Counted from the stretch's first letter, positions 7,411 to 63,645 are shown. The stretch: DNA of 64,000 nt from Ginglymostoma cirratum (GCA_024137785.1 JAHRHZ010000249.1:49128746-49192745); one strand, 5' to 3'. A program made the numbers and translations. Notes: generated from the sequence alone by a model not told the origin.

Positions 7411-7594
7411 GAGATAATAGGTACTGCAGAGCTGGAGAATCCGAGATAACAAGGTGTGGAGCTGGATGAACACAACAGGCCAAGCAGAATCAGAAATGCT
7501 TCTGATGAAGGGTCTAGGCCCGAAACGTCAAGCTTTCCTGCTCCTAAGATGCTGCTTGGCCTGCTGTGTTCATCCAGCTCCACACCTTGTTATC
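7411..7594. mobile_element. Fold-back Penelope-derived mini-element with hammerhead motif, 14-bp TSD
   Basis: Inverted arms gataacaaggtgtggagctggatgaacac... / ...gtgttcatccagctccacaccttgttatc; ATCCCAATGACCTA repeated at 7397-7410 and 7592-7605. Confidence 0.85.
7498..7533 (+). ncRNA. Minimal type I hammerhead ribozyme motif (intact core)
   Basis: gctt-CTGATGA-a-GGGTC ta GGCCC-GAAAC-GTC-aagc: core boxes, stem II, palindromic ACGT stem III, GUC triplet, gctt/aagc stem I. Confidence 0.8.
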
Positions 7595-7954
7595 CCAATG
7601 ACCTAATTTTGAAACATGAGTGTACACCCTTTTGGAGACTTATTTCTATCAAGTGATCAATAAAGCATCACAGCATAATACAAGTCAAAATATGTTTTGT
7701 GAAAAATTGAGTTTTTTTCTTGACAAGAAGCAAAAAATCTATCAACGATTCTGCTAAAAATGTGATTCTAAATGCTAGTCTGAGATTTACAACTTTGAAA
7801 AGATTAATCAGTGGTGATATACTTCAGAAAATAAATTCTTTAGTTTCAACACTTGATTAAACCAAATCCAATCTAACTTGGATATTGTTATCACCCAGGT
7901 TCAACAACTTCACCAGATGTTTTCTGAACTCACTCCATGGGCAAAAGCTAAATG

Positions 7955-8222
7955 GGACGGTGGCTCAGTGGTTAGCACTGCTACCTCATAGCACCAGGCA
8001 CCTAGGTTCTAACTCCAGACTTGGGTGACTGTCTGTGTAGAGTTTGCTCTGGTTTCCTCCCAGGGTCTAAAGATGTGCAGACGAGGTGGATTGGCCACGC
8101 TAATAGTGTTCAGGGATGTGTAGATTAGGTTATAAGGGGATGGGTCTGGGTGGAATGCTCTGAGGGTCGGTGCGGACTTATGGGGCCAAAGGGCCTTTTC
8201 CCTCACTGTAGAGATTCTGTGA
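7955..8222 (+). mobile_element. HE1-type V-SINE with internal deletion
   Basis: ggtggctcagtggttagcactgct A-box head, shortened V domain, CR1-type tail. Confidence 0.85.
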
Positions 8223-8694
8223 TCTTAAATTTTACCAGAACGATGATGATAATGCAAATTATATAGGTTTTATTCTATATTTGTTTTAGTGTCAGAAACA
8301 AATTTGTCAGGTATTTTTAGTGAGAAAATAAATAGCTTATTACAAGCAAAACTTACTTAAGCAAACATGCAAACATTATCGACCAAGAAAAGGTTTAGAT
8401 TGTGTATAGACATAAATTATGTTCTAACATGCAAAAATTAGCATGAGGCAAATATTAATGACAAGCAATCTATAGGTGAACAGCCTCCAGAAATCATCAA
8501 AAGGCAAACGTGATACAGACAGATTCAACTAATCTCTCAGAAATTCAGTCCAGACATAGTGACACTTTCAAGAAATCTTGTTAGGGATTCTAATTGTACC
8601 CTTTAACAAGCTGGCCTTGAAACTCTCTCAAAAGCTGCAGTGAAATCAGGTGCTTTAATGGTTATTCTTGTTCTGGTGGTTTGTCCTCCTTTGA

Positions 8695-9490
8695 ACAAAT
8701 GAACAAATGAAAAAGTACTGCACAGGAACAGGCCCTTCGGCCCTCCAATTCTGTGCTGACCATCATACCCTAATTAATCCAAAAACGAACCTGCCGTTTT
8801 TTTGATTCCTATTCCTCTATTCCCTCCCTATTTGTGTACCCATCTAGGTGGCTCTTAAATGTCTTCAATGTGCCCGCTTCCACCACCTCTTCTGGTAGTG
8901 CATTCCAGGCTGCCACCACTCTCTGCGTGAAAATCTTCCCTTGCACATCTCCCTTAAACTTTCCCCCTCTGACCTTGAACCTGTGCCCCCTTGTAATTGA
9001 AACTTCAACCTGGGAAATGGCCTCTGACTATCCACCCTATCTATGCCTCTCATAATTTTGTAGACCTCTATCAGGTTTCTTCTCAGCCGCCGTCTTTCCA
9101 GTGAAAACAATCCTAGTCTTTTTAACCTTTCCTCATAGTCAATGCCCTGGAGACCAGGCAACATCCTGGTGAATCTTCTCTGTTCTCTCTCCAAAGCTTC
9201 CCCATCCTTCTTGGTAGTGTGGTGACCAAAACTGCACACAATACTCCAAATGCAGCCTAACAAGGGTTTTATTTAGCTGCAACATGTTTTGCCAACTCTT
9301 GTACTCCACATCCCGGGTGATGAAGGCAAGCATGCCACATGTCTTCTCAATCGCCTTGGCTACTTGTGTTGCCACTTTCAGGGAACTGTGGACCTGCACA
9401 CCCAGATCCGTCTGAATGTTAGTGTTCACAAGGGTTCTGCCATTTACAATATAATTCACACCTAAATTTGATCCTCCAAAATGCACCCTG
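8695..9490 (-). mobile_element. CR1 LINE 3' portion
   Basis: KTLVRLHLEYCVQFWSPHY, ALEREQRRFTRMLPGL..IDYEERLKRLGLFSLERRRLR..LIEVYKIMRGIDRVD; ttcatttg-type tail near 8695-8710. Confidence 0.92.
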
Positions 9491-10059
9491 CCCCATTTGT
9501 CTGGAAAAATGCAAGGTGCAAGGCAGAACATCAGTTTTGATCTATTTGAGTTAGGGGCCCAGCACACTCCCACTGTACCAGTACTGCTTACTTGGACAGA
9601 TGCTCCCCCTAAATTCAGGATCCTGTACTCCAACACTTATTTGGAGATATAACTCTGGCTGATCACAAACAGAAGGTCTCACCAAGCTAATGCTGTCCTC
9701 TCATTTTCTCAAGATCTATACTTGCTCAATTGCACAAAGCAAATGTTGCTTATGTGAATCCTGCACCATTGTTCACAACTGCATTGAACTATTAATGGCA
9801 CATAGCTTCTTCTGGGCACTAATTCTAACACTTGGCTCCAGAGTTTTGACAGCATAAGAGCTATCCAACTAGTTGTGATTTCTCACTGAGTCTCCATTCT
9901 GTGTAGTTCAGGTTACCTTCTCAGAAGGACAGCTCAATAGGTGTTTTCTACTTGGGCCTGCCTCCATATTAACCTGTCATCTTCGCCAACTAACTGTGAC
10001 CCCAGAATTTATCGTCAGTGATCTCAGAACTATTCTGAGAAACCTACTGAGAATTTTCT

Positions 10060-10430
10060 TTTTGTATTCAGTCACGGGATGTGGCCATCCCTGACTAGAC
10101 CAGCATTTATTGCCCAACCCTAATTGTACAGAGGGCAGTTAAGATTCAACCACATTGCTGTGGAACTGGAATCAAATGTAGGCCAAATCAGGTAAAAATG
10201 GCAGTTTTCCCCCACTAAAGGACATTACTGAACTATGGGGGTCTTTTTTTCCCAACAATCAACAATGGTTTAATGTTCATCATTAGACTCTTAATTCCAG
10301 ATTGTTTTTCTATCATTGAACTCAAACTTCACTATCTTCCACAATGGGATTTGAACTCAAGTCCACAGAACATTACCCAGGTCTCTGGATTAATAGTCTA
10401 GCAATAATATCACTAGGCCAAATGACTCCC
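10060..10430 (-). mobile_element. tRNA-derived SINE sharing the family-2 LINE tail
   Basis: Reverse complement of the 58178-58520 element (tggcctagtgatattattgctagact head; gggcaataaatgctgg tail). Confidence 0.8.
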
Positions 10431-11439
10431 CTTCTTGCAATTTCAACATGTCTCACTCTTGTTCCTTGGCAGCATTGTGTATAACATATTTCAGAACAGT
10501 CAAAAGTAGCCACTGTCTGATCACTGAATGTTACATTTTTCACTGAGTGCTGACTCTGCCAACATAAATTACATACAAAATTAAAAGAATTAATCACAAT
10601 AGCCCTGAACAATTGGGCACAGACATTGTGAAGCACTGTTTAACCTGACCAGCACACAACTTCTGTGCTGACCATTCATCTCTGTGATTTCAATGTGTAG
10701 CCAGCACAAAATATGTTGTCGATTGCCTGTAAGCGTAGAAAGTAGTCCAAAATTGGTAATTACTAATGTTATTTAAGTGTGCTGGCAGTACTTAAACTCA
10801 CTTACTTGTTAAACGGAAGGTATAATATGGCTGAAACAGATGTTGGGTGTCCTGTGTGAGCTGCATCGGACACAGGAAAAGCAGAAAAAGAGTTGAAGGT
10901 GGCAAGCACAGGCAGAGTGCTCAACAGATTACCAGGATTGCTGAAACACCCCAGGTGGAGAGCTAATAGTTCCATGGACCACCAAAGATGACATCAGCTC
11001 TCCTACTTCTGCCAGTCATCAGCATCCTTGCAGTTGTCTGTCAACCAGCCACTCAAATTGCTGCTGCCTATGTCAAGACAGTGCAGTCCAAAGCCTGGAC
11101 TTCCAGATTGAAAACTGCTTGAGGGCATGCACCAGAATCATCTTTCACCGGTAATGCTAGAACCACTTACTTTTAACTAACCAGAGCTAATCAGAGCACT
11201 GGGACCAACAAAGGACTAAGAAATGTGAACAAAGAACAAAGAACAATACAGCACAGGAACAGGCCCTTTGGCTCTCCAAGCCTGCGCCGACACATTTTGC
11301 CCTTCCTCATCCTAAAAATAAAAATACTAGAATTTGGATAGTCATGGAGTATGCAAGGTGAATAGTTTAGGTTGATATGAAATATGACAGATTTATTTTG
11401 TAAGTTTGATTTTTGAAGGCTTTTCTGCCTCTTCTAACG

Positions 11440-12190: not shown

Positions 12191-13304
12191 TTGGTATAAG
12201 AGAATATTTTCCTTCGGATACTAATTGACATTATAATCTGCCTATCCTGCATTATTCTGGTCGATGTTCACTTTGCATGCTTTAATGTCAACTTCAAAAT
12301 GATAGTCCTGCACTTCATGCATTTTCCGAAACCATTTTATGACACTTTAAAGCTCTAAGGGAATTTAAACTTCCGAAAAAGCAGACACTATCAAGGCAAT
12401 TTTCCTGTCCTTTGACAAACACAAAACTATTAGGATACACCAATGGGGTGGCTTGTATGGATTCAACGTATGGTAACGGAGAAGTAGATCTGGGTGGTCG
12501 ATGAGGTTTTGTCAGTTCCTGTTCCTAAATATTGTCATAGCAACATCAGAAACTTGTAACTTAGAGATCTGTTTGACCTCTCTTGTGTATGCAGACTCTT
12601 TGGCAAAACAATCATAATGTAACTGGGGAAAGAATTTATCCTAAACATATTGTTTTCAAATGTATGTATGATGTTGCTATACAGAACAACCAGAGTAATT
12701 CTCCTGCTCCCCAATATATATCAAAATGTTGTGACAGTCTCCAGCTTCTAACAATATGGCTGTGGACAGAAGAATATCATTGCTTCACTTGTTTACACTC
12801 TATGTTGAGTTGAGCAATGATATTTCCCATTACTGATTGCAAATCAAATTATGAAATATTAGTGGGCCTCTCCCAAACCACAGCCACCACTGCAGTGATT
12901 CCCTTGCCAATGATCAGTGAGTCATACTGTGATTTCTGATCAACACCACATTTCTTCCCTTGTCTATGAATTTGTTTTGATGCAAGCTTCAATGAGGCAC
13001 AGGAATTATGTTTAATAGTGAGCTGAGCTTCTGTGTTTCATTTGAGTACCACTTGTTTGTGTTTGGAGCATGAAAAGAGTACCTGGTGACCCTTAAGTAT
13101 ACTTTACACATTTAGGCTTTGCATTACCATTATCATTATCAGAATGTGGTGGAATCGATTCATTTATCTAGGCACTTTGAGTTAACATATGAAGCAAGAC
13201 ATAAAAATCCTTGGATCAGAAGGCCAAATTAATAAAATTCACTTCAGAACGCAGGAGCTTCACTTAGAATCCCTTTTCCTCCAGCTGCGGCAATTTAAAA
13301 AATA

Positions 13305-13593
13305 AGGCCAAAAACAGAACTTGCTGGAAAAGCTCAGCCATTCCGGCAACATCTGTGAACAGAAACCAGAATTAACTTTTCAGGTCCGGTGGCCCTCCCT
13401 CAGAAGTTCTGAGGAATGAGGATTCTAAGTGAAGATACTATGTTCTGAAGTGAATTTTAATTCTGAGGAAGGGTCACCGGACCCGAAACATTAACTCTGA
13501 TTTCTGTTCACAGATGCTGCCAGACCTGCTGAGCTTGTCCAGCAACTTCAGTTTTTGTTCCTGATTTACACCATCCACAGTTCTTTCAGTTTT
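13305..13593. mobile_element. Fold-back Penelope-derived mini-element with two opposed hammerhead-like motifs
   Basis: Inverted arms aaaacagaacttgctggaaaagctcagc / gctgagcttgtccagcaacttcagttttt; plus core CTGAGGA-a-GGGTC accg GACCC-GAAAC at 13463-13489; degenerate minus core at about 13375-13404. Confidence 0.8.
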
Positions 13594-14524
13594 TAGCTGT
13601 ATTAACATTTGTTTTCTCCACACAGCTGCTGAGCAGCCTATTCTGTGTTTTCAGGATTCTTTGCATTTCTCTCAGTTTTCAGGTTTGTACATTTGAGACT
13701 GATAAAGTTTTAAGATATGTTTTTATTTATTCCAAAATAAGAATAATAATCCTCTTTCCATTAATTGATTGATTTAACATGTGGTGTATTTTGTGCTCTT
13801 GCAGCATATAATACTTCGAAATATGACTTTATTCCCAGAATTAAAGAGGTTTTGTTTCTGATTTACAGCATCTGGAGTTCTTTCAGTTTTTTTTTAAATA
13901 GGGTCTTGGGCAGACAGAAATTTCATCTGTCCCAAACATAGCCCCTACCATGGGAAATGGGGAAGGGTTGCCAGGCCTGAAACGTTAACTCTGATTTTTC
14001 TTCATTAAGACAGCTATATTTGCAGAGTCAGCGTGACACCAAATTCCTGGGCCACTTTATTTCCCCTTTCCAGTCTCATCATTGACCTTTCATTCGTCTT
14101 CAAAGAAACTCAGACAAAGCTTGTTGGATAATTGGAATCATTGGACAACCACATGGAAAATTCTGAGCTGGGGATAGCAACTCTTTTTAGTAGATTCTCT
14201 AGACGGTGAGATGATCTTCAGAGTGGGGTGGAAGTGGGGTGGAATCCAGCAAACCACATACCCCCAGTAAACAAATTTTCAATTTATCAACAGACTTAGA
14301 AAAGTGTGGGTAAACAAATGAGCATGATAGAGTACAACTCTCAGGACTAATCTCTCAGAACTACAGTGGGAGCCAGGAGAGGGCGTGGCTTGCCTGGCGT
14401 TTGAGAAATGTAAGATCTAAAGTTAAATCCTCATTCACTGGCACAGAGCTGCCATTGCTGGTATAGTTAGCCTAGCAGTTGTGAGGTGTGTTTGTTTAGG
14501 TTCTTGAGAGGGTAAGTCTGCCAA

Positions 14525-15385
14525 GGTTACCTCAGATTACAATGGGGTCTTGATCAAATGGGCCAATCGGCCTAGGAGTGGCAGAGGGAGTTTAATTTAA
14601 ATAAATGTGAGGTGCTGCATTTTGGAAAGGCAAATCAGGGCAGGATTTATACACTTAATGCTAAGGCCCTGGGGACTGTTGCTGAACAAAGAGACCTTGG
14701 AGTGCACCTTCATAGTTCCTTGAAAGTGGAGTCACGGGTAGATATGACAATGAAGAAAGCATTTGGTATACTTGTCTTTATTGGTCAATGCATTGAGTAT
14801 AGGAGTTGAGAAGTCATGTTGTGGCTGTACAGGACATTGGTTAAGCCACTTTTGGAATACTGCATGCAATTCTGATCTCCCTGCTACAGGAAGGATGCCG
14901 TAAAACTTGAAGGGGTTCGGAAAAGATTTACAAGGATGTTGCTAGGGTTGATGGATTTGAACTATAGGGAAAGGCTGAATAGGCTGGGTCTACTTTCCCT
15001 GGAGTGTCAGAGGCTGAGCGGTGACCTTATAGAAGTTTATAAAATCATGAGGGGCATAGATAGGGTAAATAGACAAGGTCATTTCCCCAGTGTGGGGGAG
15101 TCCAAAACTAAAGGACATAGATTTTAGGTGAGAGCAGAAGAAATTAAAAGGGACTTAAGGGACAACATTTTCATTCAGAGAGTGGTGCATGTATGGAATG
15201 AGCTGCCAGAGGAAGTGGTGGAGGCTGGTACAATTACAATATTTAATGGAAAGAGTTTAGAGGAATATGGGCCAAATGCTGGCAAATGGGACTTGTTTAA
15301 TTTTGGATATCTGGATGGCATGGACAAGTTGGACCGAAGGGGCTGTTTCTGTGCTGCACATCTCCAAGACTCTATAACTGTATAA
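14525..15385 (+). mobile_element. CR1 LINE 3' portion
   Basis: LHFGKANQGR.YTLN...EQRDLGV; YRERLNRLGLLSLE..RL.GDLIEVYKIMRGIDRV; RVVHVWNELPEEVVEAGT. Confidence 0.92.
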
Positions 15386-16059
15386 CTTGAGCATCGGAGC
15401 TGGTACAAGGAGGCTGAGTGTACAAACAATCAGCAGCTGTGGGAGTAAAGGTGGAAACAGGCAACTCTGACATTTGACAGACTAATGAGGAAGATCTTCA
15501 GTAGAGGCAGCCTCTGGTCAGGAAGAGAACAGAGGAATACAATAATGGGTTTCAAGGAGAAGAAGATGGTCCCAAATATATACCATTTATTGTGAATTTA
15601 GATTGGTAATATTTGGCTTTTCAGTGTGTCTGAAGTTAATAATTAACTTGTAAGTATTTCTGTAGTCATAATGTGTTCTTTTGAGCATTTTGGAGGTCTA
15701 AATTTAAAATAAATGTTATTTGCATGCATTGGTAAGGTTTGTAATTGAATAGGAGACCTAGCTCTGGTTTAAAAGTTCAGGAGAGCTTTTGTTTAGTTTA
15801 AGGGAAACACCCATAACTTAGGGCGAAAGGCTTCCTTTATTTTCTTGCAATTAGTGGATCCACTTACATTCAAAAGCTCATCACCATCAACAGTAGTCTT
15901 CAATGTTGTAATAAGCATCATTGGACTGTTTGTGTAACTTTGCTACATTCCTTACCATAGCCTACATTGTTCAAACACCTATAAGCTTCCAGCTGTGATC
16001 TTTATACCCTCCATATTCAACACCCAAGACTCCTCAGCATCTTCTATGTTTCAATGGAA

Positions 16060-17545
16060 CTACAGAGTCTGACATCAGGTATGGATAGGTTGTTGGAGTG
16101 GATTCTGGGAGAGATAAGATTCACATGCATTTGGAGAGGCAAGGACTGAGTAAGGATAGTCAGCATGGCTTTGTGCATGGGAAATCATGTGTCACAAAGT
16201 TGATTGGGTTTTTTGATTATGTAACCAAAGCATTGACTATCTGGACTTTAACAAGGCCTTTGACAATGTTCCACATAGTAGACTGGTTAGTAAAGTGACA
16301 CCACATGTGATACAGGAAGAGCTTGCCAATTGGATACAAAATTGGCTTGACAATAATAAACAGAGGATGGTGGTGGAGGAGTGTTTTTCAGACTGGAGGC
16401 CTGTAACAAATGATGTTTCACAGGGTCCGCTGTTGTTTGTCATGTATATAAGCGATTTGAATCATAGTATCAGAAGTATGGTTAGTAAGTTTGCAGAGGA
16501 CACCAACATTGGTGGTATAATGGACAGTGAAGAACGTTATCCAAGAGTATAAAGGGATCTTGGTCAATTGGGCCAATGAAGTGAGGTGTGACAGATGGAG
16601 TTTCATTTAGATAAATGTGAGGTATGGCATTTGGGTAGACGAACAACGGTAGGACTTACAGCTAAGAGCGTTGTCGAACAGAGAGACCTAGGAGTTCAGG
16701 TGTATATTTCCTTGAAAGTTGCATCACAGGTAGACAGGGTGGTAAAGAAGTGTGAACAAAAACAGAAGTTGCTGGAAAAGCATGGTGTTCTGAGGAAGGG
16801 TCACCAAACCCGAAACATTAACTCTGATTTTTTTCTTCACAGATGCTGCCAGACCTGCTGAGCTTTTCCAGTGACTTCTGTTTTTGTTCCTGATTTACAG
16901 CATCTTTTGGTTTTTATTTGGTAAAGAAGGGTGGTTTGGCGCACTTGTGTTCATTGCTGAGACCATTGAGTATGGGAGTTGGGATGTCATGGTGCAGTTG
17001 TATAGGATGTTGGTGAGGCCATTTTTGGCGTAATCCCTATTGTTCTAGTTGCCCTGCTATTGGAAGGATATTATTAAATTGGAGAACATTTACAAGATGA
17101 TGCGCGGACTAGCAGGCTTGGGTTATAGGGAGAGGTTGGATAGGCTGGGACATCTTTCGCTAGAGCAGAGGGGTGACCGGATAGAGGAGTATAAAATCAT
17201 CAGGGGCATTGATAAGGTAAATAGCAAAGATCTTTTCCCTGGGGTAGGAGAGTTCAAAACTAGAGGGCATATTTTTAAGGTGAGAGGAACAAAATTTAAA
17301 AAGGACCTGGGGGGCTTTTTTTTTCACACAGGGTACTTCACACTGTCAGAGAACTGTCAGAGGAAGTGGTAGATGCTGATGCAGTTACAACATTTGAAAG
17401 ACATTTGAGTAGGTATGTGACTAGAAAAGGTTTAGAGGGATATGGGCCAAATGCAGACAAATGGGAATAGTTCAAGTTGGGAAACCTGGTCGGTGTGGAC
17501 AAATAGATCAAAGAATCTGTTTCCGTGTTGTATGACTCCATGACC
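16060..17545 (+). mobile_element. CR1 LINE RT and 3' end, interrupted by a hammerhead mini-element
   Basis: SQHGFVHGKSC.T.LI.FFD, WRPVT..V.QG, SKFAEDT.IGG, ERLDRLG..SLE motifs. Confidence 0.92.
16751..16918 (+). mobile_element. Penelope-derived hammerhead mini-element inserted in CR1, 11-bp TSD
   Basis: TGGTAAAGAAG at 16740-16750 and 16919-16929; CTGAGGA..GAAAC at 16790-16816; short inverted arm at the left end. Confidence 0.8.
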
Positions 17546-17549
17546 CTAA

Positions 17550-18070: not shown

Positions 18071-20129
18071 TACCTAGATTCATTGATTTTATAATTGCCA
18101 CCAACTTGGTTTTGTTTCCACTACCAACTTAGACAGCAAATTCCAGGTCATTACCGCTCAATGCATATTAATAAGGATAACTTTGATTTGAGTGTAAATA
18201 TAAGTTGAGAATCACTTGATTTAATGCTATGATTAGTATCACATTAGGTTATTGTGAATCAGATTTTATCAGGAGAAATGGATGATGCACCCAATAATTT
18301 TCTAGTGCAAAATTCTCTGAGGAAGAACAGGGTGTTCACTCACGTTAACCTTGCTGCAAACAATCCTACATACAAACATTGTCAACTTCATGAAATGCTT
18401 TCTTCAATATTTCATTTATTACATGTGGCTATTTCAATATAAATGAGTTGAGATTTAATTTACGCTGTTCACTTTGTTTTGATGTTGAATTGATTGCATG
18501 ACATATGCCATTATGAAGCATCTTTGTTCCAAAATGTTAATGTTATGCAAATTTACTGGTGCAGCATGATCTAATTCAAAAAAAAAACTGTACTCTTGGT
18601 TGATTTATGCCTGCCAATTCTGAATGAGGCAGGAGACTTACAGAAAAGGGATTAACTGCATGCTGACTGCTTGAAAAACATTCACTTTGGATCTCAGACA
18701 CCATTTTCTAATTTTTTTTAGAAGCAGCAAACCTTGATAATCTCTGGTTGAAGCCACAGGCAGTGACGCCAGCCTCACAGAGTTGCATACTGAAGCACAA
18801 GAACAACAACAACCACCACCAGCTAATTTTTCACCTATTACTGACATTCCATTCTCCTGCCCGATCTGGTGTAAGGCCAAAGCAAAGAATATTTCAGCTT
18901 CTCACTGACAAAAGGTTATGAGACAGATCCTATCAGGCCAGCACCTGTAGGCAATAGACACACCATAAGGAGAGTCATACAGTGTCCGTTTGGCATCTTA
19001 AAGAGGAGATTTTCATGTTTTCATACCACAGGGTGCAGATTGCAAAATCATTCCATATTTTGTTTCTCCTATTTACCAACTTATTCCACTTTTCAAATGC
19101 TTTTGATGCTTTTCATAGCCATTCCAAAATGTGAAAGATTGAGTCAAACAGCAATTACATATGAAGCTATATTGAGATTATTTATGGCTAGTATGAAAGT
19201 CTTTTCAGTCTTTCTGGCTCTGGTACTCCTACTTTGGCAAAAACTATTATTTCCAATTGTATTGTATTTGTTAGAATGTATGCCTGGCTACCCAGACTCT
19301 TAGTGTTGAAATGTACTTCTTCCTTTTGGGAAGGTCACTGGCATGACTATAGTTGATTGTGTTAATTTTATAGCGCAGTTCTCCAACGCCTAGTGCATCC
19401 TCTTTTGCGCATGGCAGACGTTGATCTATTTTTTGGTTGCTGCCACATTTAGATAGTCTGTTAAGCACAGTTGGATAAAGCAAAAGCAGATTTTCTAGAT
19501 GCATGGAAAGTTGCCTGTTTATCTTTGCATACCAGGCCCTGTGCAATCACAATGGAATTAATCTGAATTATACCAATAAAAACATCTCTTTGCACTGTAC
19601 ACAGTAAAGCAAGATCGATAAGCCAGAAATGCTTGCGTGCATGTGTCTTCTTATAAACATTTCAATTTATAAACTGAATATCAATCAATGTAGATCATCC
19701 AGGTCAAAACTCAAAACAATTTAGATTGAAAAACCAGTCAACTTCGAAATAACTTGCACTGATCAACGTTGAAGTTTCATTTAATGGGTAGAAAATCAGA
19801 CTGAACCAGCACTAGCCATTTTGTATTGTTGTATTGTTTCTTCTTTCTGGGTAATGCCCTGTAGTATTGTGTGGCTTTGCTTTGCAAAATTATCAAATTT
19901 TCAATAAGAACTACACGACCCTGCTTGCGAGAAAGTAGCTATTCTGTAGGGCAAGGATAATTCAGGAGATAATGAGCTTATGTAAAAAAGACAGTATACT
20001 AAGGGTGACTTTAATCTTCATGTAGATTGGAAAAATCAAATTAAGAAAATGGTGATGGAGAAAAATTCATAGAATATACTTGGGGCCATTTCCTGCAACT
20101 AAATGTTCTAGATCCAACCAGAAGCTCAA

Positions 20130-20740
20130 CAGGACTCACCACATAAACCAATGGCTACAAGAGCAGGTCAGAAGCTAGGAATACTGCAGCAAGGAGCTCA
20201 CTTCCTGACTCTCAAAGCCTTCCCATTATTTACAAGGCATAAGTCAGGAGTGTGATGGAATATTCCCAACTTGCCTGGCTGACTGCAGCTCCAAAAACAC
20301 TCAAGAAGCTCGATACTATCCAGGACAAAGCAGCCTCCTTGATTGCCACCACATCCACAAGCATTCACTCCCTCCACCACCGATGCTCAGTAGCAGTAGT
20401 GTGTACAATCTACAAAATACACTGCATAAAATCACCAAAGAACCTTGGACAGCACTTCCAATCCCATGACCATTTCCATCTAGACCGTCAAAGGCAGCAG
20501 GTACCACCTGCACGTTCCCCTCCAAGCCATTCACCATCATGATGTGGAAACATATTGCCATTCTTTCACTGTCACTAGGTCAGAATCCTGGAATTCTCTC
20601 CCTAACTGCATTGTGGGTTACCCCATAGCAGGTAGACCACAGCAATTCAAGAAGGCAGCTCACTACCACCTTCTCAAGGGCAGCTAGGGACGGACAATAA
20701 ATACTGGTCGGCCTGCGATGCTCACATCCCACACATGAAT
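20130..20740 (+). mobile_element. CR1/L2-group LINE (family 2) 3' end
   Basis: YKA.VRSVMEYSQLAWLTAAPKTLKKLDTIQDKAASLI...IHSLHHRCSVAVVCTIYKIH; tail ctcaagggcagctaggga...cacatcccacacatgaat. Confidence 0.85.
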
Positions 20741-49683: not shown

Positions 49684-49717
49684 TAAGAACCCAATATTAC
49701 AGACCAGAATCTCAATT

Positions 49718-53549: not shown

Positions 53550-54833
53550 CCCTCCATCTTCAGCTGCTTCATCAATGAACTTCCTGCCATCATAAGGTTA
53601 GAAGTGGAGATGTTTGCTATTGATTGTACAATGTTCAGCGCCATTTGTGACTCCTCAGAATCTCAAGCAGTCCATGTTCAAGTGCAACAAGATCTGGACA
53701 ACATCTGACAAGTTGCAAGTAACATTCACGTAACACAACCGCCAGGCAATGACCATCACCAATAAGCGACAATCTAACCATTGCCCTTAGGCATTGAATG
53801 ATGTTACAATTACAAAACCTCCCACTGTCAACATTCTGGGGGTTATTAATTGACCAGAAATTCAACTGGACTCATCACATTAACACAGTGTCTACAAGAG
53901 CAGATCAGAAGCTAGGAATACTGCGGCAAGTAACTCACTTCCTGATACCCCAAAGCCTGTCCAACATCTACAAGGCACAAGTCAGGAGTGTAATGAAATA
54001 CTCCCCACTTGCCTGGATGGGTGCAGCTCCAATAACACTCAAGAAGCTTGACACTATCCAAGACAAAGCAGCCCTTTGTATTGGCACTACATCCACAAGC
54101 ATCCACTCGCTCCATCACCGACGCTCAGTAGCAGCAGTGTATACGATTTACAAGATGCACTGCAGAAATTCACCAAAGATCCTTAGACAGCAATTTCAAA
54201 TTCACAACCACTTCTAACTAGAAGGACAAGGGCAGCACGGTGGCTCAGTGGTTTACACTGCTACTTCACAGCACCAGGGAACTGCGTTCGATGCCAACCT
54301 CAGACAACTGTCTGTGTGGAGTTTGCACATTCTCCCCGTGTCTGCGTGGGTTTCCTCCGGGTGCTCCGGTTTCCTCCCACAGTTCAAAGATGTGCAGGGT
54401 AAGTGGATTGGCCATGCTAAATTGCCCGTAGTATCCAGGCATGTGTAGCTGAGGTGGGTTATGCGGGGATGGGTCTGGGTGGAATGCTCCAAGGGTCAGT
54501 GTGGACTTGTTGGGCCAAAGGGCCTGTTTCCACACTGTAGGGATTCTATGATTCTATTTCAAATTCTGTGACAAGGGCAGCAGATGAATGGAAGTACCTG
54601 CAAGCTCTCCTCCAAGCCCTTCACTTTCCTGACTTGGAAATATATCACTATTCCTTCACTGTCGCTCAGCCAAAATCCCAAAATCCCCTCCCAAATGTCA
54701 TTATGGGTCAACCCACCACACGTGGACCACAATGGTTCAAGAGGCAGCTCACCACTACCTTCTGAAGGGCAACTAGGGATGGGCAATAAATGCTCGCCAG
54801 CCAGCAATGCCCACATCACACAAATGAATTAAA
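53550..54833 (+). mobile_element. CR1/L2-group LINE (family 2) RT and 3' end, interrupted by HE1
   Basis: ORF 53798-54217 LIDQKFNWTHHIN...YKAQVRSVMKYSPLAWMGAAPITLKKLDTIQDKAA; tail agggcaactagggatgggcaataaatgct...cccacatcacacaaatgaat. Confidence 0.9.
54231..54556 (+). mobile_element. HE1-type V-SINE
   Basis: Full head, V domain and tail; GACAAGGGCAGCA duplicated at 54225-54237 and 54570-54582. Confidence 0.92.
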
Positions 54834-55104
54834 AATGCCAAGTGCCTTGCTTCAATACAAAAGAAAACTAAAGGTTTATCTTGAAGTAGAAAAGGAATAA
54901 CTCCTGCTTTAATTAGTAGTGCTAGATTGACAATCTTTTGTCTGTAATTAAGCACACATTAACTTAACTGTAGTTTCAGAAATTGTGAAGGCAAGTTTGT
55001 TCTCTGTCCTGCTCCATTTTCCAGCATGAAAGACGCATCCATGACATGAAAGTCATGGTCATTACTATCTTTGAGATGATCGCAAAATAGATAGTGAGAG
55101 TTAA

Positions 55105-55450
55105 CATAGAACATAGAACAGTACAGCACAGTACAGGCTCTTCGGCCCATGATGTTGTGCCAACCTATTATCCTACTAAGATCAAAGTACCCCCCAGACC
55201 CTACATTTTACCATCATCCATGCGCCTATCCAAGAGTTGCTTAAATGTCCCTAATGTATCTGACTCCACTACCACTGCCGGCATCGCATTTCACACACCC
55301 ACCAGTCTCTGTGTAAAGAACCTACCTCTGACATCTCCCCTATACCTTCCTCCAATCATCTTAAAATTATCATCCCTTGTATAATAATCATTTCTGCCCT
55401 GGGAAAAAGTCTCTGGGTATCCACTCTATTTATGCCTGTCATCACCTTGT
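55105..55450 (-). mobile_element. CR1 LINE 3' end
   Basis: (aacatag)n tail and FFTQRLVGV*NAMPAVVVE motif on the minus strand. Confidence 0.8.
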
Positions 55451-55639
55451 AATTTTGCTGGAAAAACTAGTGACTCTTAGACTATCAAAAGTCGCTGTTC
55501 GTTAAGTACCATCTAAACGAGCAGTCAGTCAGTTAGCCATTGCACAAAAACTGCCATAAGGGCCTGTGCTAACATTCATCCCCAGTTAGACAGGCAATGC
55601 CATTCAGTTGTCAATGTCAAGATATTTATTTTATTAATT

Positions 55640-57820
55640 AATTGTTGGGATATGAGCCTCACTGTCAAAGCCAAAGTCTATTGCTTATCTCTAATTTCCC
55701 TAAAGAAACCAGAAGGGTAGGGGGTTTTAATTGTGATGGGTAATATGTCGGTGCAGGCTTGGAGGGTCGAAGGGCCTGTTCCTGTACTGTAATTTTCTTT
55801 GAAACTAGTACACAGCCAATTTTTTGGAACCAATCATGTCTGTAGAGTGAAGATGCTTGCACTGTGCTGTCAGACACAAAATTCCAGAATTTGGACATGG
55901 CACTGATGAAAGAATGACAATTCAATGCTAACTCAGACTGCATGCGGCTTCAGGGGGAATCTTGCAGGTGGTGCTGGTTTCTTCATTCATCTTCTAAATG
56001 ATAGAGCTTGTGAGCTCAGGAGGTATCATCAACAGTTCCAAGGTGATCGACCTCCAACAACCACAACTACCTTCCTTTGTACGAGGCACTCACTGTCCTG
56101 ACCTGGAAATTGCTTCGCCATCCCTTCAGGGTCACTGGGTCAAAAACCTGCAACTCCTTTCTGAAAAGCACTCTGGGTGTGCTTGCACCAAATGGACTGC
56201 TGTATTTCAAAATGGCAGCTCACCACTACCTTCTCCAGGTCAATTAGGGATGGCCAATAAATGCTGGCCAGTCAGCAATGCTCACATGTCATGAACAATT
56301 TAAAAAAGATACTTCAACTAGTGGAAAGTACCCACCCCCTCCTAACCCCAATGATTTTCATTAAATTCAATTTCCCCATGGCTTCTCAATGTCAACCTTG
56401 GTCAAGAGCTGCTTTGAAAACCATGACAATAAACATCACCTCACTTCTAGAATGCAGCTCTTTAATTTGAACGAAGGTTGTGATGAATTCTGGAGCTATT
56501 TTATCACAATGGGACCCAAACTACGCTTCTGTGTCAAGGTTATTATTGAATGTGTGTTGCTTGAGATCATTGTCAACATCAGCTTAGATCACTCAGATGG
56601 TGAGTGAGACCAGACTATTAAGATACTAATGGGCCAGATTGCATTTGTTCTATTCTTGTGAACGTGACAAACTTGGGCATTTTTCCATAGATCAGTGCTG
56701 TAGCTGAACTGGAACATCTTGACTAAGGGTGTATCTAGTTCAGAGTTCCAGTTTGATCACTGAGATGCTGTTAGATCCCATGAACGTTGCACGGTGCTGT
56801 GCTCTCAGTCATTTTGTCATATCATTTGAAGTTAATTGAATTATCTGAAGCCTGGCATTTGTAATGGTGGGACATCAGGAAGAGGCGAATATGGATCTTG
56901 TGCTCAGCAATTCTGGACAAAGGTGGTTTCAGATTCTTTGTTCAGCTATATTATTTATAATCACTTTTTGGACTCTGCCATCACAGTAAATAAAGTGTTT
57001 TGTGAGCTACTAGTTCTATTCTGAACCTATCACATTTGGTACAATAGCAGTGACGTCATACAACACAAAGGAGAGTCTCCCAAAGGACTTGCAGTGGGTC
57101 ACTCCTCCCAATGCTTTCGTGCAGAAATATTACTGAAGGTAAGCTGGTGACAGTGAGGTGAAATAGGTTTATATTTGTCCTTTTACCATCTACTGCAGAC
57201 CCAGCCTGGCAATTAAGTCAGTAGTGGCAATACTAAGCCAAGCTTCCTAAAGTACATTGAGGTTCTACATATAAAGCACGTTTTTGCTTTCTTCAGTACT
57301 CCTTTCATGTGGTTTCCCAACTGATCCCTCTGCTGATGACTGTGGGCATGGAGGTGGTAATCAGCCAAGAGATTTGTTGCCAGGTCATGGGGTTCAGAGT
57401 TAATGTTAAGAAGTCCCAGAGCCACTCCCTGTGGAATGCATACCATTGTATTTCCACATCTGTGAGTATAACTAGGTTGTTGTTTAATTAGTCTTCGTCA
57501 ATGGGGAAACATTCTTAATTGTGACTTAGATCCCCAGATGTCAGTCAAGAGGGCTATTTTTGCTGACTGGGCTTTTTACGTCCACTGTCTACGTTAATAA
57601 GGGTTAATGTCGCTGTTAAGGAGGGAGTTCCAGGGTTTTGGCCCAATGAGAGTGAAGGAATGCTGATATAGTTCCATGTTAGGATGGTGTCTGACATGGA
57701 GGAGAATCTACAAGTGGTAGTGGTCACTGGCATCAGCTGCCTTTGTTTCTCTATTTAAATTTAGTTGTGAATTTGGTAGATGCTGATGAAGGACCCCAGT
57801 AAGTTGTTGCAATACATTTT
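55640..57820. mobile_element. Cluster of old family-2 LINE fragments in both orientations
   Basis: Minus tail at about 55640-55995, plus tail at about 56030-56295, decayed minus body 56390-57480 and 57605-57820. Confidence 0.55.
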
Positions 57821-57826
57821 GTCAGT

Positions 57827-59230
57827 CAAAATGTCAGCCTAGACTATTTGCCCAAGTCTAATAACTCAATCTGACTACACGTGGTCATTTAGTAATTGCC
57901 TATCTCGTCTTTTACTGTACTCTAAGAGAATATGCAGACTTCCCTGAGTATTTGATTATTCTGTATATTTCTAATTCTCAATGTCCATTTTTAAATTAAA
58001 GTGTTGAATTGGACTATTTTGAAAAAAATTGGCCTGAGGTCACGAAACCTAGACTGAACTGCTATTCCTTCCCTATCATCCAGATAAACACCAAAAAGTT
58101 TCTGGTTAAAACACTGCTGCCAGTATGATATGATCTGAGTATTCCTATATGTGATCTTTGTAACATTTGTAACAACAGGGGAGGCAATGGCCTAGTGGTA
58201 TTATCGCTAGACTGCTAATCCAGAGACCCAGATAAAGTTCTGGGTTTGAATCCTGCCACAGCAGATGCTGGAATTTGAATTCAATAAGTATCTGGCATTA
58301 AGAATCTAATGACGACCATGAATCCATTGCTGATTGTTGGGAAAAACCCATCTGGTTCACTAATGTCCTTTAGGGAAGGAAACTGCCATCCTCACCTGGC
58401 CTCACCTATATGTGACTCCAGACCCACAGCAATGTGGTTGACTCTTAACTGCCCTGTGGGCAATTAGGGATGGGCAATAAATGCTGCTCAAAGTGATGCC
58501 CTCATCCCATGAATGGATAAAGGAAAAGATTATTTATACCAGTGATTGGATTCCTATTGAGACAAGTGTCTTAATGTTTATTAACGATGCTGTTGATTTA
58601 CACTACTATAAATCTCAGACTTGCACATGGTCTGTATTTTGTGCTACATATAGAAAGACATGGTAATTGCAAACAGGTTGTTACCATCAGCACTGTCACT
58701 ATTGCTGCTAATAAGTTGAGGCATGTACATTTATACTAGAACATCATAATTTGTGATGTCAACCAACTGTCTTCAAGGCACATTGCCAACCTGGACTGAG
58801 ATCTTCCTAATAATACAGCGAACACTATGTATGGTGATGGAGGGAGTGAATGGTGAAGGTGTTAGATGGGGTGCCAATCAAGCAGTTATCCATCCCCTTA
58901 GGATGAGAATTAAAGGGAACCACTGAGGAAACATTTTCCTCCAGCATTATTATAGTTCCTGACCACTGCACCAAAATGTCAACCTAGAATATTTGTCCAA
59001 GTCTAATAACTCAATCTGACGACACGCGGTCATTTAATAATTGCCTATCTCATCTTTTACTGTGCTCTGAGTGAATATGCAGACTTCCCTGAATATTTGA
59101 TTATTCTGTATATTTCTAATTATCAATGTCCACTTTTAATTAAAGTGTTGTATTAGACTATTTGGAAAAATTGGCCTGAGGTCATAAAACCTGGACTGAA
59201 CTGCTACTCCTTTCCTATCATCCAGATAAA
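57827..59230 (+). repeat. Direct duplication of about 260 bp (57827-58088 and 58972-59230)
   Basis: Both copies read caaaatgtc..ctaga.tatttg.ccaagtctaataactcaatctgac...cctatcatccagataaa with scattered substitutions. Confidence 0.92.
58178..58520 (+). mobile_element. tRNA-derived SINE sharing the family-2 LINE tail (best copy)
   Basis: A box tggcctagtgg, B box ggtttgaatcc, body aaaacccatctggttcactaatgtcctttagggaaggaaa, tail gggcaattagggatgggcaataaatgctg..catcccatgaatg. Confidence 0.88.
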
Positions 59231-59939
59231 AACAACAACAAAAAATGACCACCTTACCATTGTATTTTCAAATTACATCTGAGCAATGATTTAACAAAAT
59301 GGCATGACCTTGAATTATTTTCATCAGAAAGATTGTTGCTAAATTGTAGTAATGTTTTGCTTTTATTGCACCATGGAACTGTAGAAAAAAAAATCATTTG
59401 ATCATGTGAAATATAATTGAAATCCAATCTGATATGTTAGTCTACAAAAATGCAACAAATTCCATTCTACAGCCCCCAAAATGAAAATAGTGCAGTAAAT
59501 CTAGTGGACAATTTGCACCTGCATTCTTCCAATGAGTCAATATATTAAAAATGTCACAAATAAATCATTCAGAGCATTTAAATTACCAACAGAGTGGGTA
59601 TACAAGAGACCACAGTGCACTATGCTGTTTTTATTCATGCCAAATTAAAGGCAGGAGTACATGGTGAGCAGTCCGTTGATTGAACAAATCGAAGCTTGGC
59701 AGCAGGAAACTGAAAGGTTGCAATCCCCTCAGTAAATTCCATTTGGACACTACTGAGCCATAGGGTAGGGCACAGACTGGGTTGGACGTATAGCAGACAT
59801 AGTTATTTGTTTCAAACTCACCATGCAGAACTAAGATGGGTCTGCAGTTGATGTTTACCTCCAGTGGGGATTGCAACGAGCTTAGAAAAAGATTGTAAAT
59901 TCCACCAACTGTGTTCTAATTGCATATTCTGCTCCTGTT

Positions 59940-60480
59940 TTTGTAATTCATTCGCAAGATGTGGGAATGACCAGCTGGGCCAGCTTTCATATTGCCCTTA
60001 AGAAGGTGGTGGTGAGTTGCATTCTTAAACAGTGGCAGTCCTTGGGATGTAGTTACATTCTCAGTGCTGTTCGGATGGCTGTTCCAGGATTGACGCCCAG
60101 CAAATGAATGGCACCATGTTCAGATGGTGTGTGGGCTGGGAAAGGAATTTGCATGTGACAGTGTCCCCATATATCTGCTGCCCTTATCCTTCTAGGCTAT
60201 AGAGTTTGTGAGTTTGGAAATTGCTGTCTCAGGAGTCTTGGTTCTTCCTTTGTAATGCACCTTGCTGCCACTGTGTGTCAGTGATGGAGGGAGTAGTTGT
60301 TTAAGGATGTGGTGCCAATCGATCCAACTGCTTTGTGCTGGATGACATCAAGCTTTTTGAGTGTTGTCAGAGAGCTGCACTCATCCAAGCAACTTAAGAA
60401 CATTTCATTACACTCCTGATTTGTACCTTGTAGGTGGGTGAACAGGTTTTGGGGAGAAAGGAGATGAGATACGCAGCGCA
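59940..60480 (-). mobile_element. Family-2 LINE 3' end
   Basis: Reverse complement of the KAQIRSVMK..LAWMSAA..LKKLD region and the tail. Confidence 0.75.
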
Positions 60481-60496
60481 GAAGATTGCTTCAGGG

Positions 60497-60800
60497 TAAG
60501 CGAGTTCAAAACTAGGGGGCATATTTTTAAGGTGAGAAGAGAAAGATTGAAAAGGGACCTGAGAGGCAACCTTTTCACTCGGAGAGTGTTTAAATGTTGG
60601 ATGAACTGCCAGATGAAGCAGTAGATGCAGGTACAGTTACAACATCTAAAAGATATTTGGATAGGTACATGAATAGGAAAGATTTAGAGGGATATTGGCC
60701 TAACTCACTCCAGTGGGACTGATTTACTTTGGGAAACTTGGTTGGCTTGGATGAGTTGGAACAAAAGGCCTGTTTCCGTTCTGTAAAACTTTATGACTGT
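60497..60800 (+). mobile_element. CR1 LINE 3' end
   Basis: EFKTRGHIFKVRRERLKRDLRGNLFT; closely similar to 17240-17545. Confidence 0.85.
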
Positions 60801-60867
60801 ATAAGTTCAGTTAAGCTTGTAGTCAGTGGCCCCACAGGATGTTGCTGGTGGGGGATTCAGTGATGGT

Positions 60868-63645
60868 ATTGATTGATTGATTGTCACATCTACTGAAATA
60901 CAGTGTAAAGCTTTGTTTGTGAGTAGTACAGACAGATCATTGTGAGCAAGGATATACAGATCAAAAAGACTTAGATAGAGACATACAGATTACATTGCAC
61001 AGGGCGTGTGCTAGGCAAGATCAATGTTAATAAGATCAGCATTATTTGAGGCTAGAGGGTTTATTCATCAATCTTATAATGGCCGGGAAGATGCTGTTCC
61101 TGAATCTGCTCGAGTGTGTATGGTTAGGCTTCTGTATCTTCTGCCTGATGGAAGAGGTTGTAGAAGATCATTACTAGAGTGCAATGGGACTTTGATGATG
61201 TTGGCAGCCTTTCTGCAGCAGCAAGCCATACAAAAGAGTCTGTGGATATAAGGTTGGCTTCCATGATGGTTGGGCTTGTGCACACCACCTTCTGTAGTTT
61301 CTTACAGTCCTGGGCAAAGCAGGTGCCATATCAGGCTGATATGCACCAGGACAGTATGCTTTCAATGGCGCATCTGTAGAAGTTGGTGAGGGACCTTATG
61401 GGCATGCCAAATTTCCCGAGCTGCCTGAGGAAGAAGAGGCATTGTTGTGCCTTCTTGACTGTCACATTTACATGGGCAATCCAGGACAGGTCGTCAGATA
61501 TCTTCACTCCAAGGAACCTGACGCCCTCTACCTTCTCAACCTCACCTCCATTGATGTAGATGGGGACGTGCTCTCCTCCCTTTATTCTGAAGTCGATGAT
61601 GTTGAGAGACAGATTGTTTTCATTGTACCACATCGCCAAGCCCTCTATCTCGCTTCTGTATTTTGACTATCATTGATAGATATTCATCCCGCTATGGTTT
61701 AGTGTCATCAGCGAACTTATAGATGGCATTCGTTTGGAATTTGGCAACACAGTCGTGATTGTACAGGGAGTACAGTAGGGGGCTGAAGACACATCCTTGG
61801 GGGGCTCCAGTGTTGAGTGTTATTGTGGAGGAGGTACAGTTACCTATTCTCACCGATTGCAACCTATGGCTTAGAAAGCGGAGGATGCAGAGGGAGACAA
61901 GACCAAGGTCACACAGTTTGGAGATCAGTCTGGAGGGGATAGTAGTGTTGAAGGTGGAACTGTAGTCAATGAGCGGGAGTCTGACATAAGTCCTTGTTGT
62001 CCAGATGTTCCAGGGATGTATTCACTGTTACATCGGTCGGCAAATTGAAGGAGATCGAGACATGCTGGGACAACACAGAGTGGAACTCAAGGAACACAGC
62101 AGGTCAGGCAGCATCAGAGGAGCAGGAAAGTTGACGTTTCGGGTTGGGGCCCTTCTTCAGACAATTTGGGAAACTGGAGTTGATGTGAGGCATCACCAGC
62201 CTCTCAAAGCACTTCTGATTGAGGTCAGAGCCACTTGGCGGTAGTCATTAAGGTATATTGCATGTGCTTTGTTAGGTACGTGGATGATGGTCGTCTTCGT
62301 GAAGCAGGTAGGAACTTCAGCTTGTAGGAGGGAGAGTCTGAAGATGTTAGTGACCTCCACCAGCTAGTCTGCACAGGATCTGAGTGCTCAGTCGGGGACA
62401 CTGTCCAGGCCCATAGCTTTCCTTGGACTGACTTCCAGGAAGATTGATCTGACATCTGAAGCAGTGACAGAGGGAACAGGTGTGTCTGGAGCCTGTCGGG
62501 GCGGGTGTTACTGCACCGCTGGTATTCTGCTCAAACTGAGCATAGAAAGCATTGAGCATGTCAGGGAGGGATGTCATTGTCCACTATCTTGCTCTGCCTC
62601 ATTTTTTTATCCCATAATGTCACTTAGGCCTTGCCACAGGCGGTGGGAATCTGTTTAGTAGGTTTGGGCCTCTAATTTGGTCCGGTACTGCCTCATGGCC
62701 TCCCTGATGCTTTTGCGGAGATCATTTCTGGATTTTCTGTATTAGTCCAGGTCACCCAACTTGAATGCTGCATGTTTGGTTTTCAGTAGGGAGTGGATTT
62801 CCTGGTTCATCCAAGGTTTATGGTTGGGGAACATTCGGTTTGACGTCTTTGGCACACAGTCCTCCACGCATTTGCTAATGAAGTTTGTGACGATAGTGGT
62901 GTACCTATCTAGGTTTTCCGCTGTGTACCTGAATAGGGCCCAGTCCACCGATCCCAAGCAGTCCCGGGGACGGTCTTCCGCTGTCTCGGACCAGCACTGT
63001 ACTTCCTTTTATGAAGGATCCTCCCATTAAAGCTTCTGCTAGTAAGCTAGGCGGAGGAACACAGCGCTGTGATAGGATTTTCTGATGTGTCAGTAGGAGT
63101 TAGAGCAGAAGGTGTCTTTGATAGTTGTGTAGCAGTGGTCCAGAAAGTTCGGTCTCCTGCTGGGGCAGGAGATGTGCACTTTTGCAGCATCCTCTTAAGG
63201 TTAGCTTCGTTGAAGTCACTGGCCATGATGAATAGGGCTCAAGAGTGTTTGCGGCGGTGTATCTCGTCTGGGGCATTCTCCACATCCACATGGGGTAGTA
63301 TGTAGACTGCTGTCAGGATGGCGGAGGTGAACTCTCATGGTACGTAGTAGGGATGGCATTTTACTGTGAGGTATTCTAAGTTTGGAGAGGAGGAGCTTTC
63401 TAGGATTGCTACATCTGAGCACCAGGAGATGTTGAACAGGAAGCATACCCCACTGCCCTTCGCCTTACCTGAGGATGCCGTGCATTTTATGTGATGTATG
63501 GAGAACCCATCAGCTTGTAGGGCACAGTCAGGAATGGCAGAGGTGAGCCAAGTCTCTGTGAAGCAGAGCACACAACAGTCTCTCAGTTCCCTCTGGAATG
63601 TAAGTTTAGATCTGAGTTTGTCCATTTTATTTTGTAATGTCATAG
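60868..63645 (-). mobile_element. Near-full-length decayed Rex1/Babar LINE (APE and RT)
   Basis: LQNKMDKLRSKLTFQRELRDCCVLCFTETWL...SGKAKGSGVC...LEYLTVKCHPYY (APE); NHKPWMNQEI; NNLSLN; AQQCLFFLRQLGKF; (atca)n tail. Confidence 0.92.
62073..62161 (-). mobile_element. Hammerhead-bearing Penelope-derived fragment inside Rex1
   Basis: Minus strand CTGAAGA-a-GGG ccccaa CCC-GAAACGTC at 62133-62160, followed by the family arm. Confidence 0.75.

Follow-up and report, generated by a model that had tools for sequence, protein, structure and literature searches.

Minimal hammerhead ribozymes in Penelope-like elements of Ginglymostoma cirratum: short copies suggest a position at the start of a mostly uncut transcript

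Introduction

A 64,000-nucleotide stretch of the Ginglymostoma cirratum genome (GCA_024137785.1 JAHRHZ010000249.1:49128746-49192745; hereafter the window, with positions counted from its first letter) contains 13 sequences resembling minimal hammerhead ribozymes, which a first-pass annotation ascribed to Penelope-like elements (PLEs) and related retrozymes thought to cleave as dimers. This raises the question of what a ribozyme does in an element that is found here mainly as short insertions. The role of the PLE hammerhead has been called unclear (PMC8557442) and the origin of head-to-head pseudo-long terminal repeats (pLTRs) has been described as an open question (PMC3846280). Hammerheads in PLEs have already been published, as have opposite-strand pairs, tails and inverted copies, and the motifs alone are ordinary since the hammerhead class is known (PMC4209133). 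Added here are the copy number, the 5' edge of the short copies, the TATA-like box and initiator geometry in four families and a non-native G at the edge. The motifs are probably part of the pLTRs of endonuclease-bearing PLEs, present mostly as decayed 5'-truncated insertions, with the short copies likely being run-off products of capped RNA that begins just before the ribozyme and was left uncleaved. The start-site model taken alone, as drawn from the genomic copies, appears probable to practically the same degree.

Ribozyme positions are numbered with C3 of CUGANGA as 0, placing the predicted cut after +27 in family A and after +29 in family B. The family letters are our own and refer to stem II, which is GGGT/GCCC in family A, GGGTC/GACCC in family B, GGAGC/GCTCC in family C and longer in family D.

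Results

The 5' edge of short copies

The 5' ends were sampled from tail-anchored copies in random stretches of the genome, excluding hits with <80% identity or adjoining a gap; several of the junction and edge counts given below (families A, A/B, C and D) were made by eye on the first listed genome places. The 78 family A ends were distributed as 20 beyond -55, 2 at -55 to -9, 22 at -8 to 0, 23 at +1 to +24, 4 at +25 to +31 (the cut site) and 7 later, and the 40 family B ends as 3, 4, 15, 10, 2 and 6 in the same bins. The excess at -8 to 0 was evident relative to the upstream region (p 7e-16 for A and 2e-9 for B) and relative to the cut site (p 0.003 and 0.007, respectively). Among the first 100 of 26,944 family A hits in the genome, inspected by eye, 53 were native through -17, none ended at -16 to -8, 31 ended at -7 to 0, 13 at +1 to +20 and 3 at +24 to +28.

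The edge follows a TATA-like box and not stem I of the ribozyme, falling at about -4 in families A and B, -7 in C and -18 in D. In long copies the TATA-like box and initiator were located at -35/-4 (A), -37/-7 (C) and -48/-18 (D); those of family B (-33/-4), missed by the automated TATA pattern, were read from the sequence, and the spacing between the two elements was 29-31 nt in all four families. Stem I also ends at -4 in families A2 and B, so that a transcript start and a structural stop would look alike there. Such a separation is provided by family D, where stem I ends near -5 and the arms of head-to-head copies end at -17/-18. Specifically, among the first 50 of 79 family D junctions the spacer measured 31-37 nt in 26 cases (exactly 34 nt in 13), ≤13 nt in 8 and >37 nt in 6, the 31-37-nt spacers implying that both arms end at about -17/-18. 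The spacer was ≤13 nt in 33/50 A/B junctions, in a search limited to cores ≤30 nt apart. Many family C copies start at -7/-8 (by eye), with stem I ending at -4.

A non-native base at -5 was found in 3,035 family A copies. The first 100 of these were inspected and 14 long-copy point mutants dropped, leaving 86 junction copies with G in 52, A in 26 and T in 8 (by eye), where the background would give G a share of 0.25-0.29. This G excess is reminiscent of the untemplated G at full-length L1/SVA insertions, which has been attributed to cap copying (PMC3287187). For family C, a G preceding the edge was left out of the cap evidence, an inverted arm reaching a native C yielding the same letter. As ends do not pile up at about -25 in family A, a 3' splice acceptor there was dropped as a cause of the edge.

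3' ends and head-to-head pairs

The 3' ends of family A were concentrated at two places in the random sample, +88-94 (28/92 hits) and +125-128 (25/92), corresponding to the PLE "tail" and the two internal reverse transcriptase (RT) start sites of an Anolis PLE (PMC11167929). Head-to-head pairs typically had one arm tailed, the one-sided tail being 30-40 nt long. The retrozyme or tandem-dimer reading of the first-pass annotation was not supported, as no tandem repeats bearing ribozymes occur within the window and only 4 of 91 family A hits in the random sample were direct repeats <1 kb apart, the others being head-to-head (52) or solo (35); no direct repeats <1 kb apart were found among 40 family B hits. 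Head-to-head copies cannot form a same-strand dimer, and the window copies are therefore unlikely to cleave. Genome-wide, 7,742 head-to-head junctions with cores ≤30 nt apart were recovered. Among the first 50, nearly all differed and templated filler was frequent; junctions that differ from copy to copy would have formed independently.

Same-strand stub duplications, about 94 and 144 nt apart, were observed beside a gap in locus L131 (5103-5327 and 5760-5979) and are either rare tandem-dimer candidates or assembly products. Gaps of 400 N occur at hairpin centers in the window (35590-35989) and in loci L130 (5133-5532), L131 (5347-5746), L136 (4504-4903), L138 (5228-5627) and L140 (4308-4707), and the palindrome center is often duplicated on either side of the gap, which may raise counts artificially and give the look of a 430-bp period. 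Such a periodicity, apparent among the ribozyme pairs of contig C1, was dropped as a product of these gaps.

A proposed route to the short insertions

In the proposed mechanism, RNA polymerase II would start at the initiator, at -4 in families A and B, -7 in C and -18 in D. The element protein would nick both target strands and prime reverse transcription inside the RNA at two fixed sites, so that priming in the 5' pLTR copy would give cDNAs of 95-130 nt running off at the cap and priming in the 3' pLTR copy would give long 5'-truncated cDNAs. Two cDNAs, primed from both nicks, would then be end-joined by microhomology-type repair into hairpins. The ribozyme would cut only conditionally, either as a dimer formed through its ACGT/AGCT palindrome or with the element protein, and cutting within the leader would take away the cap together with about 32 nt. 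In the long family A locus L032, the first ATG downstream of the tail is at +165. Based on the 5' ends, the RNA templates were likely mostly uncut. Weak dimer cleavage of such hammerheads has been reported (PMC4209133; PMC6765202, a review that covers the dimer cleavage work of Lunse et al.). In vitro, the Anolis PLE works from uncut RNA, and its protein-assisted cleavage is dispensable for insertion (PMC11167929). The fuller reading is favored with somewhat less confidence than the start-site model. It has a capped transcript, driven by the TATA box and initiator, begin right at the hammerhead, and takes the tens of thousands of stubs and hairpins as a fossil 5' RACE (rapid amplification of cDNA ends) of "strong-stop" cDNAs from uncleaved RNA, joined in pairs. 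The ribozyme would then be a conditional decapping or leader-removal switch and not a template maker.

Alternative explanations and contrary observations

The edge could instead arise at the DNA level in elements of the same PLE origin, through an endonuclease that nicks an AT-rich site in the pLTR of its own element or through microhomology joining at the first AT patch. ATT is the preferred target of the Anolis PLE endonuclease, which is able to cleave the pLTR junction of its own element (PMC11167929), an ATT is present at -4 to -2 of family A, and the templated filler of the junctions is typical of end-joining. However, the B, C and D edges have no ATT, two ATT motifs at -35 to -27 of family A draw no ends (2/78 at -55 to -9), and the 29-31-nt spacing to the TATA-like box is held in four families, making such an origin unlikely. 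Stalling of the RT at stem I, at the front of the folded ribozyme, would account for an edge at exactly -4 in A2 and B but not for the -17/-18 ends of 26 of the first 50 family D junctions, given a stem I ending near -5, nor for the many family C copies beginning three or four bases beyond the end of stem I; a polymerase moving 3' to 5' would also have opened stem I before copying its 5' strand, and an edge set by RNA structure is considered improbable. Vertebrate tandem retrozymes derived from pLTRs do exist, including one chondrichthyan case (bioRxiv 10.64898/2026.07.22.740005), and a few short same-strand duplications were seen here (4/91 hits and L131), so that the short copies might be self-propagating non-autonomous elements, retrozyme-like or similar to miniature inverted-repeat transposable elements, spreading via ribozyme-cut circular or dimeric RNA. 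The junctions nevertheless vary from copy to copy, the ends are not at the cut site, no ribozyme tandem occurs in the window and the subfamily letters agree with those of long autonomous copies, and this account appears slightly less probable even than RT stalling. For rotifer PLEs, head-to-head palindromes have been proposed to result from self-priming on an antisense transcript of a bidirectional pLTR promoter (PMC3846280), and junction centers here are frequently short palindromes; the same edge in solo copies, the ending of both arms 30 nt past the sense-strand TATA-like box and the G excess would all be left unexplained, and this origin is regarded as very improbable.

Several observations weigh against a capped, uncut transcript beginning just before the ribozyme. 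In family A, the ATT at the edge is an endonuclease-type motif, about 5 of 31 edges include the native C at -5, suggesting that the start may be ragged, and 23/78 copies begin inside the ribozyme, which requires end-trimming. Seventeen of the G cases are possibly templated, and dropping them together with 7 A cases leaves G in 35/62; no cap-G excess was seen by eye in a handful of family B copies, of which about 5 have A before the edge and 1 has G. The self-complementary edge dinucleotides (AT in A, GC in D) could favor fold-back, truncation within 55 nt was found in only about 10 of the first 100 listed family D copies, and one D subfamily has no initiator matching the regular expression at -18. 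The 400-N gaps at hairpin centers can duplicate or hide junctions, and the Penelope promoter of D. virilis has been described as internal and TATA-less (PMC2377424). Contigs of sequencing runs contain the element with loose ends beyond the -4 edge; no pile-up of begins or ends was listed in these contigs, whose RNA status is a guess and which are uninformative on starts, strand or level.

Penelope-like element identity

The assignment of the motifs to PLEs is nearly certain and bears out the Penelope origin proposed earlier, through relatives of a GIY-YIG remnant in the window and through ribozymes located downstream of RT + GIY-YIG frames. The remnant gave 91,322 first-look candidates in the 4.36-Gb genome, from which a 1,889-aa "open frame" was dropped as a run of N. 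In 20 fetched loci, the family A ribozyme was found about 280 nt downstream of long frames, which matched RVT_1 in 6/6 and GIY-YIG in 3/6 cases, several of these under the curated Pfam cut-offs. L032 has a direct repeat of 386 nt on either side of the frame, and the family A ribozymes in its two copies are 3,567 nt apart; this partial-tandem pLTR arrangement around a frame was seen in family A only. The family B ribozyme followed a related RT + GIY-YIG frame (tblastn) by 262-266 nt in 12/25 loci; one of the other 13 had such a frame 442 nt away and 12 were unmatched by the motif pattern. A GIY-YIG-like remnant was present upstream of family C ribozymes in 2/12 loci, with a displaced remnant in a third, and the family D ribozyme followed a Poseidon-like GIY-YIG remnant. 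For each of the three families in the window, copies were found in which the ribozyme follows a GIY-YIG-type frame, RT being shown in A and B.

A zinc-finger-like CX2-5CxxC linker between RT and endonuclease (EN) was found in families A, B and C and not seen in D. This linker is given for both Neptune and Nematis (PMC8557442). By their features, families A, B and C would be EN+ PLEs of the Neptune clade, the linker being common to Neptune and Nematis, and family D would belong to the Penelope/Poseidon clade. Family D, with its long stem II and Poseidon-like GIY-YIG, was observed in L030 (5867-7327) and L153-L160. Two other arrangements were noted: L023 (115-5553) has two family A ribozymes on the same strand 5.3 kb apart, of which only the second is joined to the frame, the first being a separate truncated copy, and a family A stub is nested within a family B element in L052 (840-1000, minus strand).

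Structure and integrity of the motifs in the window

All 13 motifs named in the first-pass annotation were located in the window, where families A, B and C are present, in agreement with its count of at least three families; family D, found elsewhere in the genome, has no copy there. The motifs are real minimal type I hammerhead sequences. A structural descriptor scan, as that annotation had proposed, gave 7 exact-core hits in the window, 6 with UH and 2 fully folded, compared with means of 0.63, 0.13 and 0, respectively, in 30 dinucleotide shuffles. An Rfam scan of the window matched no hammerhead family and gave only 4 weak unrelated hits.

Core letters were kept in 4/13 motifs (7502, 36093, 40967 and 62160), the same four for which intact cores had been claimed, although the full fold was kept only at 7502 and 36093. 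At 40967 the G10.1-C11.1 pair is lost, and at 62160 stem I is down to 1 bp and stem II to 3 bp. The palindrome is lost at its CpG at 13463, 16790, 41642 and 39482, core mutations are present at 13403, 41625, 49818 and 36610, and the 5' half of the motif at 35573 (minus strand) falls inside an assembly gap. On the minus strand, the positions given previously corresponded approximately to the H17 base; C3 lies at 13403, 39482, 41625, 49818 and 62160. Stem II of family A has 4 bp and a loop of 4 nt, in place of the 5 bp and 2-nt loop described previously, and in the GTH-like core H17 is U in families B and C. The ACGT palindrome of the minimal helix III held for families A and B, and for D as well, but family C has AGCT; CpG decay has removed the palindrome in many copies. 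An extra base between 9 and 10.1 was present in 44/44 family A copies.

The covariation of stem II across families that had been suspected was recovered in an alignment of 23 natural copies (12 from the window and 11 from other loci), in which 7/10 stem pairs showed two-sided changes and G10.1-C11.1 was G-C or G-U in 22/23. The covariation score was 0.432 against 0.179 for shuffled alignments (0/500 reached it) and ≤0.127 for slid controls; the score is inflated by the relatedness of the copies and its signal stems chiefly from between-family differences. For the RNA of 7498-7533, a double-hammerhead dimer was predicted at -13.1 kcal/mol compared with -36.2 kcal/mol for a non-catalytic dimer.

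Insertions in the window

The 13 motifs fall into nine insertions of three PLE families. Target-site duplications (TSDs) of 11-15 bp were found for six of the nine and none for the other three, and an inverted arm was present in seven. The head-to-head arms lie on opposite strands, and the predicted folds of four insertions are long hairpins in which the ribozyme would be buried.

The family A hairpin insertion at 7411-7594 (both strands; 14-bp TSD at 7397-7410 and 7592-7605) combines a tailed minus arm without a core and a plus arm in which a minimal type I hammerhead remains intact at 7498-7533 (+), with C3 at 7502 and a predicted cut after 7529. This hammerhead comprises a 4-bp stem I, partly from the flank, a bulged A, a 4-bp stem II, GAAA and the ACGT palindrome. 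The motifs at 35573 (minus strand) and 36093 (plus strand), listed separately before, are both real but belong to one family A head-to-head insertion at 35520-36219 (both strands), split by the 400-N gap at 35590-35989 and sharing a 15-bp TSD (35505 and 36220). Its minus arm (35589-35518) has the 5' core within the gap, and its plus arm retains the native TATA-like box, initiator, intact hammerhead (C3 36093, predicted cut after 36120) and tail. The longer family A insertion at 39358-41024 (both strands; TSD of about 13 bp) contains on the minus strand a remnant of RT thumb, Zn-linker and GIY-YIG, a 3' untranslated region, a decayed hammerhead (C3 39482) and a tail; its inverted arm (40606-41029) carries the hammerhead with C3 at 40967, where the core is intact and the first stem II pair lost. 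The broken PLE reading frame of this insertion (39690-40613, minus strand) showed 55% identity by tblastn to the RT + GIY-YIG protein that L027 encodes for family A (residues 278-579). Pfam searches on 11 window frames gave no GIY-YIG match, the remnants being too broken, and the PLE identity of the window remnant was for this reason drawn from its relatives. The remaining family A insertions are a head-to-head hairpin at 41499-41735 (both strands; 11-bp TSD at 41488 and 41736), with a tailed minus arm (C3 41625, G12 mutated) and a plus arm that has lost the palindrome (C3 41642), and a solo stub at 62066-62161 (minus strand; C3 62160, H17 62133) with an intact core, weak stems I and II and no TSD found.

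Family B is represented by a head-to-head insertion at 13233-13595 (both strands; no TSD found), with C3 at 13403 in the minus arm (A9 mutated, palindrome lost) and at 13463 in the plus arm (palindrome lost), a stub at 16755-16918 (plus strand; C3 16790, palindrome lost) with an inverted short tail piece at 16754-16781 and a 15-bp TSD with 1 mismatch (16740 and 16919), and a solo stub at 49714-49821 (minus strand) starting at about -3, with C3 at 49818, G8 mutated and no TSD found. The spacer between the arms of the first (13411-13459) is repeated inverted at 13233-13281, outside the left arm, as if flank had been copied into the junction. Three family B remnants were absent from the first-pass list: one with a damaged core at 13958-14004 (plus strand), one with stem II deleted at 33535-33656 (minus strand), which also has a TSD (13 bp, 1 mismatch; 33521 and 33657), and a tail remnant without ribozyme at 50691-50749 (plus strand). 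The family C insertion is head-to-head at 36505-36732 (both strands; 12-bp TSD with 1 mismatch at 36493 and 36733), its plus arm (C3 36610) having G8 mutated and the palindrome broken and its minus arm lacking the core start.

The rest of the window is largely repeated, LINE-like debris (2111-3614, 8855-10432, 14523-17548, 20117-20740, 28282-31022, 37035-38941, 53554-56306, 58177-61974 and 63335-63796), with one weak RVT_1 match at 2519-2899.

Abundance and decay

The very high genome-wide density suggested by the first-pass annotation was borne out, with 155,224 core-intact descriptor matches (by sequence only) compared with 4,735 in the control. Exact patterns matched 62,840 times for family A, 8,593 for B, 160 for C and 7,002 for D, with 0 matches in the reversed controls; a looser pattern with a flank condition gave 720 matches for family C. 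In 80 random stretches of 10 kb, where N accounted for 34% of the bases, family A made up 4.8% of the 528,127 others. Motif density in the window is typical of the genome, with 63 descriptor matches per Mb compared with 70 per Mb in the 80 random stretches.

The core was kept in 34 of 44 family A copies spanning it and the core plus palindrome in 23, with the palindrome CpG lost in 12. No selection on single copies was seen among these 44, where substitutions at non-CpG core positions came to 5/440, by inspection like the tail, compared with 12/44 at the palindrome CpG. The decay of family A copies looks neutral, and individual genomic copies are likely inert.

Discussion

The shark motifs share with the minimal hammerheads that metazoan PLEs carry in their pLTRs (PMC4209133; Cervera and De la Pena 2014) the CUGANGA/GAAA/UH core, the extra base between 9 and 10.1, G10.1-C11.1, the lack of a loop 3, a palindromic 15.2-16.2 and the occurrence of several families per genome, mostly as single copies or close opposite-strand pairs with few in full elements. 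They differ in number, with about 150,000 core-intact motifs here compared with about 4,000 in coelacanth and about 9,000 in Xenopus, counted with another descriptor, and in position, as the ribozyme is not placed at the transcription start in the parts of that study cited here. Up to 120,000 retrozymes have been reported in axolotl (PMC7229834) and a PLE expansion in whale shark (10.1101/443036); the present set may be the largest of PLE hammerheads yet counted, bearing in mind that descriptors differ between studies.

With Neptune-clade EN+ PLEs and Penelope/Poseidon (PMC8557442, PMC3846280), the elements have in common an RT followed by a C-terminal GIY-YIG, partial tandems, inverted 5'-truncated copies, a 30-40-nt one-sided tail and TSDs, while a large share of the copies here are stubs of 95-130 nt with a single sharp 5' edge. 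A putative TATA box and initiator have been noted in a rotifer pLTR (PMC3846280). The Anolis element PAc, which belongs to Poseidon (Frangieh et al. 2024, PMC11167929), likewise has two internal RT starts that define the tail, and its dominant template is uncut RNA, with RNA reads absent at the cut site, which matches the uncut-template reading proposed here. The PAc frame begins inside the ribozyme, whereas in L032 the first ATG downstream of the tail is at +165, and PAc is known biochemically whereas the shark element is known here from its sequence alone. Animal non-LTR retrozymes (PMC7229834; bioRxiv 10.64898/2026.07.22.740005) are similar in their type I hammerheads, relation to pLTRs and high copy number, but form direct tandem repeats yielding circular RNA, whereas the copies here are solo or head-to-head. 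A literature search by title and opening abstract, with most subscription papers outside its reach, returned no paper dealing with PLE hammerheads in sharks or with a transcript that starts at a ribozyme.

These insertions have consequences for genome analysis, as hairpin insertions account for many assembly gaps and, in a single genome of vertebrate type, about 150,000 ribozyme-like motifs escape Rfam. For the biology of PLEs, they constitute a natural sample of very large size, from which the likely start of the transcript can be read with single-base precision in four families and which suggests that the RNA templates of these elements were mostly uncut.

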